DNA from: Cyanobacteria bacterium auto_48_18
GTDB lineage: Bacteria > Cyanobacteriota > Vampirovibrionia > Obscuribacterales > Obscuribacteraceae
Assembly: GCA_036170915.1 (NCBI GenBank)
Contig: JAVHQC010000033.1
Location: 160,001 to 224,000, forward strand
Direction: 5' to 3'
DNA length: 64,000 nucleotides
In this document: piece after piece, positions 12,001 to 39,000 of the stretch
How the letters are laid out: the number at the start of each line of letters is the position of its first letter
Numbering within the stretch: position 1 is the stretch's first letter
Position numbers: made by a program

Positions 12001-15000
12001 GACAAGAGCCTGGCGAATGGCTAAGGTAGATACGAGCCGCAAACAGGCAATTGAAACCTGATTAAGGCCCGAAGGAGAGAAGACGTGAGCACCAAGTCGG
12101 TACAGAAAATAGCAAATGCACTTTCAACCGCTCTATTGGCTGTCGCTGCTTTCTCTTGCCCAGTGTTCGCTTATGGCGAATCTGACGTGATGAATACATT
12201 GAGAAGTCCGCTCATCTACGGCGCGCCCAATAGCCCAGCATGGGTGCCCGCCCAGGAAGGTTGCCCACCACCAATCGGTAGTGGCGACTGCCCTTTACCT
12301 GTTACCGGTGGTGATTATGGTGCGCCTTTCCTACCAGTGACTTCAGTGCCAATGCCTCTAGTAGGGCCTCTGGATAAAGCCACGGTCAATGCCTTTGCCG
12401 CTCCCTACTTGTGCCCACCACCTTCAACTCCAGGTTACGACCCTTATTCAATAAATGGTTCGAGTGGAGGTTATGGTGTTAGTGCTCCGGTCTCGGTGGT
12501 TAATGTAAGCCCCGGCGGCGGTTTGGAAGGTAGTGCACCAACTCGTAGATGGAGAGCCCAGCGCTCATTCGACCATGGTCAACCCAACAATGTACGCGGC
12601 AATGGTTCAACCCTCAACGATTTTGGTCAGAAGCTCTGTGATAAACCAGATTTGAAAATGGTCCCGCAAGTTTCACAAGATGGCCCGAGACAACAAGGCA
12701 GCTGGATGGGCCAGACCACACAAGATTTACACGGAAACAGGTCGCTCTTTAAAGGACCAAATCTCCGCTCTCAACTCACAATCGCTCCATATTAACTTCA
12801 CGAATTTTTCCCTCGCCCGCCACGCTCAACTTATTCTTTATAACGGCTTCAGGAGGCCAGACAATGTTTAACCGTAAGTTCATCCCCGCAGTATTCTCTG
12901 CAATCACCATAAGTGCCACTTGCGCACTTGCCTCCTCAGCCCAACCGTGGCCAGGCAGCCCACCACAAGTTGGCCCTGCTCCGGTGAGCCCAGTGAGCAC
13001 TTTGCGCACACCATTGATTCAAGGCCAGCCAAACGGCGCGCCGTTCCAGGCACCAATCGAAGGCGCTCCACCAGCGATTGGTGACGGCCCAACTCCAGCA
13101 GGTGTCAACCCAGGTATGGGTGGCTCACCAGAGTTGATGCCATGGGTACCGGCCATTCCAGCCAACCAGATTGACAATAGTTTTTCAGGCATTCCTTTAG
13201 GCATTAGTCCAGCAATCGTTTCTCCTCCTGGAGTATTGGGACCATCGCTGACAGGCATTGTGCCGCAGTCGCCATCAACTCCTGGTGTAGATCCTGGATC
13301 GCTTTCGGCTCCTCCTGGATTCATTAATGCTTCACAGCAAGTCAACATCATGCCTTACGGCGGATTTGCCGGTACTGGTGGATATAACACCACAGTTCCA
13401 ACCGTGCGTCGTGGTGGACAGGAGACTGCCCAGTGGGGATACCGCGGTCGTAACTCAATGATTGGTGGCTTCGGTGGTGACGGTTCGCAAGACAACGTAG
13501 AGCGAATGGGGCCATGGGCCGGCTGGGGCGCTGTAACCGGCGTACCTACAGGTAATGGCTTGAGATCTGGATCTATCGACCTCGGCGGCGGTCAACGCTT
13601 CCAGGCCGGCGGAGCCATCATTCCAACCGGTTCGAGCATTCAAGACTTTGGTCTGTCTGCCACCAGAAACAACCCGATTGGTGCATTGCAAGCTAATCAG
13701 TCTTATGAATTCGGCCAGGGCTTCAGACGGATACCCATGTACAGCAGCAAGACTACTGACTTCGGTTTCCCCTACACCCAGTTCTCACCAGGCAACGTAA
13801 CTGCTCAAAAGACCGGCCAACGTTTGCTTCCAACTGGAGTAATCACCAACTTCTAAAAAGAAATTGTGTGGCTTAAATTTTGTCCCGGTAATCCGTAAAG
13901 TCGCAAGACTCCAATCCTGCCGGGTTGCCGGGATGAAACTAAATAAAACCCTTAGGGGGGAATTCCCATGATCGTGGGAATCCCCCCGATTTCATTCCTG
14001 GTGGGGGTTTCGTAATATGTATCTAACGAACCGCATTGCGGCACCCCTAGGACAACGGACTCAAGAATCATGAGAAGAGAAGCCCCAACAAACAGAATCG
14101 CTAAATTGGCACTAGCTGTGGCCCTGGTCTCTTGCTTATTCGGGCAGACACTACCTGCGATGGCACAGTACAGTCTGCAAGCTGAGCAAGATGCAATGCT
14201 TCCTCCCGATGTTGTGCCACTAGACCCGGCTGTGGGTCAAAGAATGTCCCAAGCGCAAGCTGCAGCTCGTCAGAACAACGCCAATAATAGCTATAACAAC
14301 GGCCAACAGTCAGCAATGGCTGGTGACCCTTCCATGGCTAATGGCATGTCGAACGGTATGTCTAACGGAATGCCTAATAACATGTCGAATGACCAGGGCA
14401 TGCAAAACAATTTCAACAATCAGTCACAGGGCCAGTTCAACAACATGCAACAGGCCAACAACATGGGTCAGCCTAATGGCAATGCTCCAGGCAGCACCGG
14501 TACATCAGACTGGATCATGCCTAATGGCCAGGACCAAAATGCCCCAATGACCGCTTACGGTAATGTCAGCCAAACTCAAACACTGACTGCACCTCCATCT
14601 AATCCAATCGTACGACGCTCCACTCGCCGCGGCGGGATGGGCACTGCTGTTAGCGCTCTGGCCGGATTCGGCGCCGGCGCTATGGTAGGCACCATGATCA
14701 GACGGCCCAACACGCTGTTCGGTCTCGGCGCTACCGGTCTGTTTATGACCGGCTTCGGTACACGCAACGGCTTCCGGTTTTAGTTTTCTTTTTGTCTGGA
14801 GACAAGGCAATGAATTTCAAAATTTTTCTTTCTGTAATCGCTCTTGCTGTAACTACTGTTGCTGCTCAACCGGCTGCCCGAGCTGATGAGGGTGGTGGTG
14901 GCAACATGAGATGGAAGTTTGCCCCAAACGTTTACAGACTTGAAGAGCCTACCGGACCACGTCACCATGCTTTTCATGAGCCACCAGCGCAACAAGTGCG

Positions 15001-36000: not shown

Positions 36001-39000
36001 AGGCAGCAACGGTGGCGGTGGAAACATCCTCAATGGTGGCGGTAGTCTTCCCAACCCTATGCCTGCAACCAACGGCATTATTCCAAGCTACGCAGAGGCT
36101 AATCCGAGCAATTCGAGCAATGGTCCAGCGGTAGACTCTATGGGTAACGTTATCGATGGTTCTGACGGGCAACTGTCCGCAATTCCCGGCCAGCAAGCCA
36201 CACCGCGCTATGGTGGTCTGCGTCCACAAACACGCGAGGCTATGCCATCTAAACGTGGTCTGTTCGAGAACGGCGGCGGCAACCCCGAGCCTAATCTCAA
36301 CCAAACCAGACGGCCCATGACCAGCCTCAACCCTGATGTTTCCCATTTGGGCCTCGACCCAACAAAGAAGCCTGGCGTAGAGTTCTAATTTGATCACTTA
36401 AGTGTGCATATATTCCGCCCAGCGGGTAAATCACCTTAGGGACACCACTTTAGGAACCACGTCACCTTTTGGTTATGCAGCAGACTTTACTTCCCAGCGA
36501 CAAAGACTATTGGAAGCACATCGTTGCTTCGAACAATCAGTTTGGTATAGACGTCCTTAAAACTCTCGCCATGGCCAGACCGACATCAAATGTAGTGTTG
36601 TCGCCCACCAGTATTTTTCTTACCGCTTGCATGCTCTATAACGGGGCAGGTGGAAACACCTATTCGCAAATGGCCGCTGCCCTCAATTTACCGAAGCCCA
36701 ATGAAATCAATCCATGGAACAGGCAACTTTTAAATTACCTGGTGATGGATAAACCGGACCACGAAGTCTCAATTGCCTCAGCTCTCTGGTTTGGTAAAGG
36801 GGTGCGCTGCCACGAAGGCTTTGTCAATAACGCCGTAGAAGCCTATTCAGCCTCTTTATATGGAGTAGATTTTGGCTCCCCTGAGGCGATTGAGCAAATC
36901 AACTATTGGGCAGAGAATGCCACCAAGGGTAGAATCACTCATATTCTGGATGAAAATAGTTGCAACGAAGCTACCCTTCTGGTCATCAGCAACGCAATTT
37001 ATTTCTTTGCTAAATGGGAACAGAAATTTGATGCTGAGAAGACCATAGACAGCCCTTTTTATATGGTTGGTGGCGGTGCAAAATCTGTAAAAATGATGTC
37101 TAAAGTAGATAGTTTGGCTTATCGGGAAGATGAAAATGCCCAGATAGTAAAGCTGCCTTACAAACAATCACCATACTTTATGCAATTGGTATTGCCCAAG
37201 CCTGGTCGCAGTTTTGGCCACTGCATCGAATATATCAAAAATCCAAACATGGTTATGAATGCTGTTCCGAAAACTTCGGTGGCTTTGCGAATGCCCCGGA
37301 TGGAAATTGAATTTAGTGACAATCTCAATCAAGCAATGTCGCAGCTTGGTATGAGTGAACTTTTCGCTAATAACTGCGATTTGTCTTTGATCACTCCAGG
37401 TGTAAAAGTTAGCTTCATTAATCATGCAGCAAAATTAACTGTGGACGAAAGCGGTACTGAAGCCGCCGCGGTAACGGCGGTCGGGGTAGGGTACGGTTTG
37501 GCACCGAGCGTCGAGAAACCTGTCTCAATGACTCTGGACAGACCATTTTTGATGGCCATCGCTGATAGTGGCACAGGGCAAGTGCTCTTTTCTGGTGCCA
37601 TACTTTCGCCGTGAGCGTCGGGCTTTGGTCGGCTGGTTACTAAAAGAGCTTACGAAAACGCAGAGAAATTTTGCGCAAATTTCTCTGCAATCTGGCACAA
37701 CCTATTAATGACCCCGACAACAAGAGCCGAAAAGCAGCGAAAATCAGGGTTTTTGCGCCGTAAAATTGATCTGTGTCGAGCACCAGTGCACCGAGCGACC
37801 TTCTTTTTCTAAAGTCTCTTCGTAAGGGTCGATAGTTTTAGCAATCACATTCCAGCCGGCAAAAGCAAGCGCCAGCATTTCTTCTACTTCTTCGCGCAGC
37901 AGCGGAGTTTCTACAAAAGTAGCAATGGCCTCGCCTGAAACAACATCAACAACGTTGCGATTGGTAGTCATTTCAATGCGCACAAAGCCACCGCTTTTGC
38001 AGCCTGCTGCTATTTCGCGCATTAGAGTGAGCACGCGGTCTTTGCCCTGGCAATGCTCCAGGGTCGAGATTGCGGCAATCAAATCGTAATGCGATTTAGC
38101 CATAGCGAAATCATCATTGTCGGCGAGTACTGGCTCAATAATATCTTGAACTTTATAAGTGACAGCATACTCACTCAACAGATCTATTGATTCTGCTAAA
38201 ACATCTACGCAAGTGATTGTGGCTTCTTTATTTTGTTTCTGCAAAGCTTGTGCCATAGGAATGGCATTGCGACCTACTCCGCAGCCCAAATCAAGAATTT
38301 TGATATTGCCTTCTAAATAGTTGAGCAGCTGCATCAAAGGTTCGTCAGGATGCGCTAACCAGGAGCCGTCTTCGAATAGTTTGAAACGACTATAGTAGGC
38401 TTTATGGTATTTGAGTGTTTCTTCTCGTGCGCGTTCAAAGTCAACAGATTCCACTGATTCAATAGACATGCAATCAGCTCCCAGCAGATTTATTATTGAC
38501 TGCGCTGTAAAGCGCACCGCGAGTGCGTAGCTGAATGTTATTGCCTTTGCGGAAATGTTGAATTACGTGGCGCAGACGAGCCCTATCTTTTTCATTCAGT
38601 TCCGTCTCGTACCAGTTGCTGAATGCAAAAGTGAATGCTTCAGCGGTGACGGCGCAGTCAGGAAAAATAAAGGAGTAATCACTTTCTTCGTATGGAATTT
38701 CTTCTTTCAAATATTGTTCGAATACACGTTCAAGTGGTGCTTCGTAAATTTCGGCAGCATCGAGATCGCGTTCGCGTGAAGGCACAAAGCGCCTTGCGAT
38801 ACGGTCATAATCACAATCTCCGTAGAGGCCAAAAATAAACAGATGACCATCAGCTTTGAGTACACGCTTCACTTCGGCCAGCGCCTGGTCGCGTTCTTTA
38901 ACCAGATGGAACATCCACGGCATGATCACAACGTCGAAGCAATCGTCATCAAAAGCTAATTGCTCAGCTCCCATTTCTAAGAAGGTGAGGTTCGAGATGG

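Follow-up and report, generated by a model that had tools for sequence, protein, structure and literature searches.

The window, a stretch of 64,000 nucleotides from contig JAVHQC010000033.1 of Cyanobacteria bacterium auto_48_18 (Obscuribacteraceae), harbors a chromosomal gene cluster that resembles an apparatus for mating or injection captured by its host: a very divergent, relaxase-free relative of conjugation machines, with a strongly conserved pilin-like protein of its own, that is found across the whole order Obscuribacterales, a group of cyanobacterial relatives without photosynthesis. Its core status in the order, and not merely in the family, is new here. The conserved gene set extends from position 10818 to 36388. 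All genes named for the cluster in the initial annotation were found at their positions, and its upstream limit has to be moved outwards to include a conserved, divergently transcribed gene. The features are as follows.

10818-11441, minus strand: 207-aa coiled-coil protein, divergent from the cluster (tblastn, 10/10 loci)
12085-12795, plus: secreted Pro/Gly-rich protein a, 236 aa, N-terminal hydrophobic segment
12864-13856, plus: secreted Pro/Gly-rich protein b, 330 aa, conserved in loci
14070-14783, plus: secreted Asn/Gln/Met-rich protein c, 237 aa, conserved in loci
14792-15451, plus: secreted protein d, 219 aa, conserved in loci
15514-16140: genus-level duplicate of d (28% identity), seen here alone in comparison with nine other family loci
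16149-17685: two lineage-specific inserted genes, 292 aa (minus) and a 181-aa membrane protein (plus)
17868-18296, 18657-19085, 19407-19835 and 20185-20613 (span 17868-20613), plus: four tandem 142-aa pilin-like genes
20846-21880, plus: two small open reading frames (165 and 166 aa), partially paralogous to the N-terminal part of the giant protein
22377-28568, plus: giant polytopic protein, VirB6/TrbL-like, 2063 aa if read from its first start codon (hydropathy, Atlas features)
28621-29295, plus: cytoplasmic Cys4 zinc-ribbon protein, DUF2225-like, helical C-terminal half
29332-29670, plus: 112-aa membrane protein in the VirB3 position, one strong hydrophobic segment
29689-32514, plus: VirB4-family ATPase, 941 aa
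32417-33157, plus: bitopic VirB8-fold protein
33326-36388, plus: VirD4-type coupling protein, 1020 aa

ATPases and inner-membrane proteins

The VirB4-family ATPase is matched by the Pfam models P-loop_TraG (5e-16) and AAA_10 (2e-8) and by the NCBIfam models TraC-F-type (6e-48) and CD1110 (2e-46), all of the latter far under their curated cut-offs, and its Walker A motif GQPGEGKS is invariant in 10/10 orthologs. A paralogous cluster resides on contig C1 (924-18165) and contains a second VirB4 (28% identity over 858 aa, E 9e-84) and a second zinc-ribbon protein (24% identity) but neither pilin nor VirD4; the two paralogous chromosomal VirB4 clusters proposed earlier are thus real. The C1 VirB4 matches CD1110 with 1.2e-60 and finds its best plasmid matches in CD1110 genes of Enterococcus, and a Mycoplasma ICE VirB4 model is among the best NCBIfam models for the VirB4 paralogs. 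Neither paralog fits any of the curated VirB4 classes. Affiliation with the cyanobacterial MPF_C type was rejected, as pairwise BLASTP of either protein against alr7206 gives just E 0.002.

The coupling protein is recognized by T4SS-DNA_transf (3.8e-18), as had been annotated. It features a Gln/Pro-rich N-terminus, one membrane segment, an intact Walker A motif and a long low-complexity C-terminus with CxxC...CxxC, and is present in 10/10 loci with 55-74% identity (tblastn). In the whole genome, which is 86% complete, VirB4-type and T4CP genes number only two each. A machine serving DNA import or exchange for the host chromosome, like archaeal Ced/Ted or Helicobacter ComB, would agree with a chromosomal, relaxase-free core system combining pilin, VirB6-like protein and VirB4, and the C1 VirB4 indeed weakly matches CedB (1.6e-7) and CedD. 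These scores are far under the cut-offs, however, and VirD4 is retained at every locus, while to our knowledge Ced and ComB function without a VirD4 coupling protein; we consider this reading quite improbable.

The VirB8 fold was re-derived from an AF2 model (pLDDT 76, above 90 in the C-terminal domain) with 39 PDB matches in Foldseek at E<=0.001, headed by DotI, TraM, VirB8, TraE, CagV and PrgL and also including TraH of pIP501. Pfam TraE matches the protein in 2/13 family members (best E 0.0015). Its true start probably lies near 32525, since the orthologs (206-238 aa) start after VirB4.

Six hydrophobic segments of the giant protein are situated within residues 21-438. There is no Pfam match, but Atlas features of residues 1-480 resemble TrbL_3, TrbL_4 and TrbL clusters (0.88-0.90), and every named match belongs to that clan. 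Conservation is confined to residues ~1-550 and 1360-1700, ortholog length varies between 647 and 2337 aa, and the surface region is giant, variable and rich in repeats; searches with the C-terminal domain yielded no identification. The two preceding small reading frames are 40% identical to each other and 35-60% identical to residues 13-104 of the giant protein; similar pieces occur in only 2/9 other loci.

The gene for the zinc-ribbon protein adjoins that for VirB4 in 10/10 loci, and the CPxC...CPxC motif is invariant in 12/12 aligned sequences including the C1 paralog. Its description as DUF2225-like holds for the C1 paralog (1.1e-13), whereas the window protein itself reaches only E 0.0019, below the cut-off. 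The 112-aa membrane protein is present in 10/10 loci (55-79% identity); it has no Pfam match and no significant similarity to the PrgI-like C1 protein, so that the label VirB3/PrgI-like lacks sequence support of its own.

Pilin-like module and secreted proteins

The four tandem pilin-like genes encode proteins of 97-100% identity, as had been reported. The mature 97 residues are the same in all copies and differences are confined to positions 5, 6, 11 and 13 of the 46-residue leader, at a dS of up to 0.50 and a dN/dS of 0.02-0.07, and the flanking regions are unrelated. Across genera, the protein is 78-97% identical. An AF2 model based on 57 sequences (pLDDT 78) exhibits a leader helix, a disordered stretch (residues 47-64) and a helical hairpin (65-98/106-135) with a pLDDT of about 90. 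Atlas features match DUF4134 and TrbC/VirB2 clusters (0.89), and the genes precede that for the VirB6-like protein. The Pfam models TrbC and T4SS_pilin do not match the genes, fold searches with the model lacked specificity (E 1.7 for the best Foldseek match; helical bundles in VIA, Z 7.2), and the protein is just moderately hydrophobic, with no segment flagged in a hydropathy scan at 1.6. The module was found in 30/30 and 2/2 genomes of the two families of the order but in 0/118 genomes from nine other families of the class and 0/300 elsewhere in the phylum, a range that equals that of VirB4. Feature matches, hairpin model, copy identity and phyletic range place the earlier pilin assignment on firmer ground, still short of proof.

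The module also closes membrane proteins of about 1000 aa with a VIT domain. In this genome, it forms the C-terminal end of 983-aa and 979-aa proteins (VIT 1.4e-8; XrtN-type VIT protein 6.6e-18); it furthermore terminates at least 15 of 148 representative clusters (900-1063 aa), and in 11 further genomes it ends reading frames of 949-1091 aa. A pilin-like module that is limited to two families, with an identical mature peptide, a helical hairpin and VIT fusions, is new here. Multiple gene copies, conservation matching that of VirB4 and adhesin fusions might suggest a surface filament alone, serving adhesion, aggregation or biofilm formation, with ATPases for assembly and no substrate transfer. 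We know of no studied system in which coupling proteins are required for pilus assembly, and here VirD4 is kept with an intact Walker A motif, which leaves this interpretation little probability. According to the account in a 2026 paper, VirD4 proteins suppress pilus accumulation.

Proteins a and b are paralogs (30% identical). Protein b, encoded with 37-88% identity at all nine family loci and with 51% in the second family, ends with an invariant T-N-F and has 55 invariant alignment columns, many of them Gly or Pro; a profile search against PDB sequences returned nothing significant. Proteins a and c occur in 8/9 family loci each and in the second family, and neither matches a Pfam or NCBIfam family; a ends with an aromatic residue and c with a Gly-rich hydrophobic stretch and F/Y. 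Protein d is encoded at all nine family loci, in one case partially, as well as in the second family. Upstream of the first of these genes and on the opposite strand lies the coiled-coil gene, shared by nine family genomes (41-79% identity) and the second family; its product belongs to no Pfam family at E<=0.001. The inserted 292-aa and 181-aa genes gave no tblastn match in ten other loci; contig C10 encodes three paralogs of the 292-aa protein. None of the libraries searched identified an outer-membrane component.

Inheritance and use of the machine

A VirB4 match is present in 103/104 family genomes and 37/37 genera, the sole miss being a 64% complete genome. Both VirB4 paralogs also occur in 3/3 genomes of the second family of the order; the term family-core is too narrow. 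In that second family the genes stand at two loci, [a-b-c-d-pilin-giant] and [Zn-B3-B4-B8-D4], with no part missing. VirB4 matches from other families of the class are weak (E 1e-6 to 8e-22) or lacking; the conserved set of VirB4, VirD4 and VirB8-fold protein was met in no other group sampled, and the lineage restriction of both clusters holds. The same is true for gene order, which is kept in 9/9 family genomes of nine other genera for the window cluster and in 2/2 for the C1 type. VirB4 orthologs share 94-99% identity within the genus and 70-86% with other genera. This distribution, synteny and an identity that tracks kinship suggest vertical descent from a conjugation-type T4SS.

A functionless, degenerating leftover of an integrated conjugative element could account for the lack of relaxase and integrase and for components unrecognizable by sequence. 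VirB4, however, is an open frame without stops at 70-99% identity throughout the family, its Walker A motif is invariant, the pilin copies exhibit low dN/dS and both halves survive the split in the second family; the notion is already contradicted by these conservation data and extremely improbable. Intact nucleotide-binding motifs, strong conservation and the fixed order of VirB4, VirD4 and VirB8-fold genes argue for a functional machine. On balance we lean towards a vertically inherited pilus/translocation machine, descended from a conjugation-type T4SS and retained by the whole order for the host's own use. The inner-membrane platform would comprise VirB4, the VirB8-like protein, the 112-aa membrane protein and the VirB6-like N-terminal domain of the giant one; there, VirB4 may pull the 97-residue hairpin protein out of the membrane for polymerization into a surface filament, the four gene copies possibly providing dosage. 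Secreted proteins a-d, three of them with an aromatic last residue, may replace the missing VirB7/9/10 outer-membrane part, and the VIT proteins could be adhesins built into or anchored beside the filament. VirD4 would feed the channel with a macromolecular substrate, to be delivered to another cell on contact.

Scanning 21 window and 10 C1 proteins with Pfam and NCBIfam confirmed that the clusters lack relaxase, integrase and VirB9/10/11. This does not apply to the genome: on contig C17, a relaxase (PF03432 3e-9) adjoins a canonical T4CP (PF02534 8.7e-50). Homologs of the relaxase are found in 41/61 family genomes in 1-12 copies and are 91% identical between genera, yet absent or only 33% identical in genomes of the same genus. 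All 12 sampled loci contain the same four-gene module, with no VirB4, VirB6, pilin or VirB8 match within the 14-20 kb fetched. Relaxase and its own coupling protein are parts of this mobile module, which is common but patchy in the family. As the modules lack channel genes and the genome contains only the two VirB4-type genes, they probably, by exclusion only, exploit the host machine as a mating channel and do not explain it. Retention of the machine where this relaxase family was not found, and the 86% completeness of the genome, speak against the link.

Alternatively, the machine could inject protein effectors or mediate contact-dependent attack on prey, hosts or competitors, the mobilizable elements being unrelated. 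Precedents are a proposal for Vampirovibrio and a system essential for epibiotic growth in a Patescibacterium, where chromosomal retention is likewise lineage-wide. The presence of VirD4 in a relaxase-free cluster, adhesin-like VIT proteins bearing the pilin module, the variable surface region of the giant protein and the persistence of the machine in genomes where the relaxase family was not found (second family, 0/2 genomes; first family, 9/30) all fit. Nevertheless, this appears unlikely, if conceivable: no effector, chaperone or translocation signal was identified, the Vampirovibrio system is a plasmid-borne MPF_T with relaxases, the present data show no predatory or epibiotic habit, and the genomes are large (2.3-9.6 Mb).

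Comparison with known systems

The Rickettsiales vir homolog (rvh) T4SS is comparable in its order-wide vertical inheritance, duplicated VirB4, lack of relaxase, several oversized VirB6-like proteins and, in some members, multiple VirB2 copies; it differs as a recognizable MPF_T with VirB9/10/11 in obligate intracellular bacteria. With monoderm MPF_FA/FATA systems, the Obscuribacterales share CD1110 and Mycoplasma ICE models among the best for VirB4, PrgL and pIP501 TraH among the VirB8-fold matches, the lack of VirB9/10/11 and the order VirB6-VirB3-VirB4-VirB8-VirD4 (in pCF10, PrgH-PrgI-PrgJ-PrgL-PcfC). In contrast, scores are at most half of the curated cut-offs, the system includes a pilin-like protein, neither a cell-wall hydrolase nor a relaxase was found, and the host lineage is one we take to be diderm.

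The cyanobacterial class MPF_C, as described for alr7199-alr7213 of Nostoc pCC7120alpha (PMC8600333), shares the phylum and a VirB4 of similar length preceded by a small gene, but its cluster also encodes a MobV relaxase and a protein of the TrbI/VirB10 type. Archaeal Ced/Ted, in the account of Beltran et al. (2023, PMC9905601), are likewise chromosomal, lineage-conserved, relaxase-free derivatives of conjugation, with a VirB2-like pilus; the envelope is archaeal and sequence matches are faint. For Vampirovibrio chlorellavorus, of the same class, Soo et al. (2015, PMC4451040) describe an MPF_T system, two of whose three operons lie on relaxase-encoding conjugative plasmids, and propose a role in cell-cell interaction, as is suggested here; the systems are not orthologous.

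The closest published analogue appears to be the chromosomal T4SS of Patescibacteria. As reported by Quinonero-Coronel et al. (2025, PMC12102498), it is lineage-wide, has a distinct VirB4 clade, VirB3/PrgI and VirB6, lacks a relaxase in most clusters and is thought to be co-opted from conjugation; VirB2-like pilins form 441 arrays of 2-11 genes, T4CP genes close to virB4 number just 148 of 5,713, and VirB8 is seldom present. Lineage-wide chromosomal occurrence, a distinct VirB4 (a likeness by description), VirB6, clusters without relaxase and tandem pilin-like genes are shared. The Obscuribacterales differ by a pilin missed by Pfam pilin models and a large-genome, presumably diderm host, and by VirD4 and a clear VirB8-fold protein inside the cluster, a zinc-ribbon partner, four secreted Pro/Gly-rich proteins, a giant VirB6 and two paralogous systems.

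Components and class placement of the machine in the window

From 12085 to 36388, genes follow each other almost without interruption on the plus strand of the window, and within this run library matches beyond doubt (Pfam, NCBIfam) are restricted to VirB4 and VirD4:

29689-32514, plus strand: VirB4-family ATPase of 941 aa (Pfam P-loop_TraG 5e-16, AAA_10 2e-8)
33326-36388, plus strand: VirD4 coupling protein of 1020 aa (T4SS-DNA_transf 3.8e-18, TraG-D_C, TrwB_AAD_bind)

The ATPase matches the solved TrwK/VirB4 (2.5e-10, PDB sequence search) and its Walker A motif is invariant in all ten orthologs, as expected for the VirB4 of a type IV secretion system (T4SS). 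All three Pfam matches of VirD4 exceed their cut-offs (9e-19 in the whole-genome scan), identifying it as a coupling protein. It starts with a Gln/Pro-rich N-end (residues 1-190) and finishes with a long low-complexity C-end carrying CxxC...CxxC (residues 700-1020); its orthologs are 894-1167 aa long.

The VirB8 fold that the initial annotation had ascribed to the product of 32417-33157 was recovered upon re-modelling and matching to solved VirB8-type structures. Orthologs begin right after VirB4, so that the true start is probably near 32525. In the AlphaFold2 model, built with 13 family sequences, a membrane helix (residues 40-67) is followed by a loosely structured linker and then by a C-terminal domain (pLDDT >90) composed of four helices and a sheet of four strands. 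Foldseek returned 39 solved chains at E<=0.001, DotI first (2.8e-5, TM 0.70 on target), followed by TraM of R64, an IcmL-like protein, TraE of pKM101 and TrwG as well as CagV, TraH of pIP501 and PrgL; Agrobacterium VirB8 (2cc3) was matched at 6.4e-5. The Foldseek probability is 1.00 for DotI, VirB8, TraE, TrwG, CagV and PrgL, in agreement with a bitopic VirB8-fold protein. A profile of the family gave nothing at useful E-values against PDB sequences. Plastid division proteins ARC6/PARC6, which are of cyanobacterial descent, also match the model through their intermembrane-space domains (E 1e-4), a likeness that probably reflects the common NTF2-like fold and no more.

The positions annotated initially hold for the four 142-aa genes, the 2063-aa giant protein, the 224-aa Cys-rich zinc-ribbon protein and the membrane protein of 112 aa. 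The giant has six hydrophobic segments within residues 21-438, and in a language-model atlas its residues 1-480 are closest to TrbL_3, TrbL_4 and TrbL clusters (0.88-0.90), all named hits belonging to the TrbL clan. We take this as a lead to, not proof of, a VirB6/TrbL-type polytopic protein. Pfam and NCBIfam scans of the giant were without match. Between genera it is kept only at residues ~1-550 and ~1360-1700, the middle being variable and Ala/Gly/Thr/Pro-rich, with ortholog lengths between 647 and 2337 aa. For the conserved C-domain, a profile found no useful PDB sequence and per-member Pfam scans gave chance matches only. Two ORFs of 165 and 166 aa (20846-21880) repeat the giant's signal-anchor and first periplasmic stretch, and in two other genomes similar pieces stand ahead of the giant; decoys, minor pilus parts and duplication scars are candidate roles. 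The 112-aa protein, at the VirB3 position, has no Pfam match at E<=10. Its counterpart on contig C1, where a second VirB4 cluster resides, matches PrgI under the cut-off (E 0.0013), and the two proteins show no significant similarity to each other, either by BLASTP (E 0.32) or by hhalign (E 0.016 at a probability of 2.9%).

Of the hallmarks of diderm T4SS (types MPF_T, F, I and G), neither the outer-membrane core of VirB7, VirB9 and VirB10 nor a VirB11 ATPase was found among the 21 window and ten C1 proteins with Pfam and NCBIfam. Outer-membrane analogues may be present, below recognition, among the four secreted proteins a-d encoded from 12085 onwards; a profile of protein b gave nothing at useful E-values against PDB sequences.

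The nearest NCBIfam family to the window VirB4 is F-type TraC (6e-48, 163 bits, cut-off 567). The clostridial CD1110 family follows with 2e-46 and 159 bits (206 bits for the C1 VirB4; cut-off 325) and the Mbov_0397 type with 105 and 156 bits for window and C1 VirB4, respectively (cut-off 590). As the window protein stays below these curated cut-offs, it reaches no curated class. For the monoderm classes MPF_FA and MPF_FATA, neither paralog attains the score of a curated VirB4 family. Among 72,556 plasmids the best matches to the window VirB4 share 23-25% identity; the widest alignments (23.6%) are to Deinococcus and Myxococcus plasmids, in which the surrounding genes are unannotated. With regard to MPF_C, BLASTP of both paralogs against alr7206 of pCC7120alpha gave only E 0.002, and a search of this plasmid with the window VirB4 and Pfam AAA_10 was without match, its MPF_C VirB4 having been found via the T4CP. 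The pCC7120alpha cluster differs further in that it includes a MobV relaxase and TrbI/VirB10, neither of which was found in the window or C1 cluster. Neither paralog is thus of MPF_C, the cyanobacterial class.

The pilin-like protein and its hairpin module

The four tandem 142-aa genes share 90-100% identity in coding DNA while the flanking DNA is unrelated. Synonymous divergence reaches 0.50 at a dN/dS of 0.02-0.07, and copies 2 and 4 are the sole pair with the same DNA sequence. By these measures the copies are not recent repeats. Amino acid differences are confined to positions 5, 6, 11 and 13 of the 46-residue leader, and the mature 97-residue peptide is identical in all four copies. Tandem copies number one to four per genome, and the protein is 78-97% identical in nine other genera, compared with 69-95% for VirB4 in the same genomes.

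VirB2 and TrbC have long leaders and processed ends. An AF2 model from 57 diverse relatives (pLDDT 78, pTM 0.61, as against pLDDT 43 in the initial annotation) starts with a leader helix, is disordered at 47-64, where the conserved motif GAPVDPRYGQ lies, and then pairs two long helices (65-98 and 106-135) as a hairpin; the Gly-rich C-end GGLGGGL is invariant. A long leader, a small hairpin-folding mature protein and a gene beside channel genes are thus all found. In the atlas, the protein's own clusters are followed by DUF4134 and TrbC/VirB2 clusters at 0.89. Conjugative pilin profiles (PF04956, PF18895; TrbC, T4SS_pilin) gave nothing at E<=10 against it, six-frame genome scans with TrbC and T4SS_pilin pointed to unrelated places only (E 0.035-0.83), and the module profile had no match among PDB sequences. 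Foldseek against PDB found nothing at E<=0.001 (best 1.7), and wide VIA-align matches with Z up to 7.2, rated unspecific, comprised ATP-synthase, VirB5/VirB6 stalk, BAR and designed helical proteins. Since fold searches do not separate this hairpin from others, they speak for likeness, not membership. The pilin reading proposed initially is strengthened as a likeness: judged from model and sequence, the protein would work like a VirB2-type pilin, and membership of the VirB2/TrbC families is not claimed.

Relatives of the module are encoded on further contigs of the same genome, all distant from the T4SS clusters:

C5:8577-11528, minus strand: 983-aa protein, the last 95 residues of which correspond to the mature pilin-like peptide (54% identity)
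C31:5213-8152, plus strand: 979-aa paralog of the C5 protein, ending in the module motif plus one helix
C10:206332-206691, minus strand: 119-aa stand-alone relative

The ~980-aa proteins combine a polytopic N-region with a VIT domain (1.4e-8), and module fusions of 949-1091 aa are present in 11 other genomes. When 1.84 billion representatives were searched with the profile, 148 clusters proved to contain the module (102 at 1e-10), either stand-alone, with ~100 additional N-terminal residues, or large with the module at the extreme end, at least 15 clusters (900-1063 aa) being of this large form. In most of them two clearly hydrophobic helices are connected by a basic loop. One distant cluster, of ten looked up, is labelled Obscuribacterales. 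The ~980-aa proteins also match the NCBIfam XrtN-type VIT protein (6.6e-18, far under the cut-off), and for this reason the conserved motif preceding the hairpin was considered as a PEP-CTERM-type sorting signal. This idea was set aside because nothing to be sorted would be left of the small proteins, and because most members have two helices and lack a basic tail. Profile matches occur in 30 of 30 genomes of the family Obscuribacteraceae and in both genomes from a second family of the order Obscuribacterales; none was seen in 118 genomes from nine other families of the class Vampirovibrionia or in 300 from elsewhere in the phylum.

Distribution, genomic context and the cluster on C1

Of 104 family genomes, 103 gave a VirB4 match, with all 37 genera represented and the single miss being a genome of 64% completeness; identity of the orthologs in the family is 94-99% within the genus (14 genomes) and 70-86% outside it. 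In the class-level sample (401 genomes), all three genomes of the second family contain an ortholog at 74% as well as a paralog at 32%, which makes the system core to the order. The family-core status asserted initially thus holds, with a range that extends to this second family. Weak matches (E 1e-6 to 9e-18) appear in 18 of 30 genomes of one further class family, one genome of yet another has a match at 8e-22, and eight class families (263 genomes) are without match.

The order a-b-c-d, pilin, giant, zinc-ribbon protein, VirB3-like protein, VirB4, VirB8-fold protein, VirD4 is kept in nine of nine family genomes from nine other genera, proteins a and c not being detected at one locus. A further conserved gene lies upstream in ten of ten loci:

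10818-11441, divergent from the cluster: 207-aa coiled-coil protein

In the second family, the part from the zinc-ribbon gene to virD4 stands amid housekeeping genes and the part from a to the giant is found on a separate contig with the coiled-coil gene near. That neither half was lost when the set divided speaks for a single function under selection. Window regions 15514-17685 and 20846-21880 are lineage-specific additions; the former contains a gene inserted in this genus only, for a 292-aa protein (16149-17027, minus strand) with faint EF-hand matches and three C10 paralogs (26-27% identity).

The flanks are ordinary and devoid of an integrase. Nine tRNA genes (4122-5603, plus strand; Gly, Arg, Lys, Val, Asn, Met, Ile, Leu, Tyr) lie about 5 kb upstream, together with MgsA and a RES-domain toxin (3.3e-9) with its Xre/HTH antitoxin-like partner (9389-10638, minus strand); this pair adjoins the coiled-coil gene and is outside the conserved set. 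Downstream, methyltransferases, a ParA-like gene and, directly after VirD4, a serpin (36469-37614, Pfam 8.4e-91) are encoded. The serpin is so placed in only two other genomes and has a 34% identical paralog on C13.

The cluster on C1, the order of which recurs in two complete genomes, comprises:

First genes: two secreted proteins, then a 687-aa lipoprotein-like protein
A pair of VirB6-like proteins (829 and 1951 aa) with 28% identity between them
DUF2225 zinc protein (1.1e-13), then the PrgI-like protein (E 0.0013)
VirB4 (CD1110 1.2e-60; TraC_F_IV N-domain 4e-8), then two small proteins

Neither a pilin nor a coupling protein was found in it. The two VirB4s align with 294 bits, and the plasmid matches listed as best score about 112 and 90 bits for the two; this mutual score and the common, unusual zinc-ribbon partner point to one ancestral system for both clusters. 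A 219-aa paralog of the VirB8-fold protein (C1:70306-70965, minus strand; 24% identity, E 7e-8) is encoded elsewhere on C1, ~53 kb away from the cluster and with unrelated neighbours.

Relaxase modules, ownership and known systems

An integrative conjugative element is not indicated: the system is present in 103 of 104 genomes, in a fixed context, and neither relaxase nor integrase was found within or next to either cluster. The initial statement that a relaxase is lacking is correct for both clusters and does not extend to the genome, as a six-frame scan with Pfam Relaxase uncovered a match on C17 (2.3e-9):

C17:8829-13203: four-gene module for a 145-aa protein, a MobA/VirD2-like relaxase (428 aa), a T4CP and a membrane protein

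The T4CP is canonical (697 aa, 8.7e-50), the membrane protein has 188 aa, and the island also holds PIN, RadC, STAND NTPase, PRTase-CE, SMC-like/AAA and RloB genes. Of 61 family genomes, 41 (27 of 37 genera) contain homologs of the relaxase, in 1-12 copies each and with up to 91% identity between genera, yet a same-genus genome lacks them. At 12 of 12 sampled loci from 12 genomes the four-gene module was present, and VirB4, VirB6, pilin and VirB8 were without match in the 14-20 kb around them. With its relaxase, its own T4CP, its patchy occurrence and channel genes absent, the C17 module is a predicted integrative mobilizable element. Such modules need the channel of another system. In the whole genome, which is 86% complete, the AAA_10/VirB4 genes number exactly two, as do the coupling proteins, and on this gene inventory the core machine would be the only candidate channel seen for the modules. 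Mobilizable elements were also considered as the reason for the machine's conservation and dismissed: at E<=1e-15 the relaxase family is present in 21 of 30 family genomes, in neither of two from the second family and in none of 118 others, and the machine is kept in the genomes of both families that lack it, so that the elements would be its users and not the cause of its retention.

Conjugation machines are usually owned by mobile elements. Their lineage-wide chromosomal retention, as in Rickettsiales (with rvh as a lineage-owned derivative), Patescibacteria and Sulfolobales, marks a major change of use and has in each case proved central to lifestyle. Obscuribacterales add another such case: they are a sister group of the photosynthetic cyanobacteria that lives freely, has large genomes and is uncultured, and their cell biology is almost a blank. 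The 97-residue peptide is expected to be abundant at the cell surface. Further testable parts are the unrecognised outer-membrane solution, the zinc-ribbon partner of VirB4 and the putative natural pair formed by a channel of the host and mobile elements that have none. Current class models miss this pilin family and these VirB4 lineages, which bears on automated counts of conjugative systems in metagenomes. The most far-reaching reading, which we consider rather unlikely as a whole, would be that Obscuribacterales have made a ninth, hitherto undescribed T4SS class a host organ: a chromosomal mating machine with a new pilin family, the module of which is fused to VIT-domain adhesins, duplicated into systems that cooperate, of which one has pilin and VirD4 and the other neither, and offering a public channel to channel-less elements with relaxase and T4CP, such that gene flow would hang on a host-owned and not a plasmid-owned apparatus.

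The main-text literature on type IV secretion in Obscuribacter/Melainabacteria yielded unrelated work apart from the Vampirovibrio paper, which describes a plasmid-linked MPF_T system (PMC4451040). Archaeal Ced/Ted is a further lineage-owned derivative (PMC9905601). The closest published analogue of the Obscuribacterales system is the chromosomal T4SS of Patescibacteria (PMC12102498), which has a distinct VirB4 clade near MPF_FATA, is mostly relaxase-free, features arrays of VirB2-like pilins and is essential to epibiotic growth in one species.
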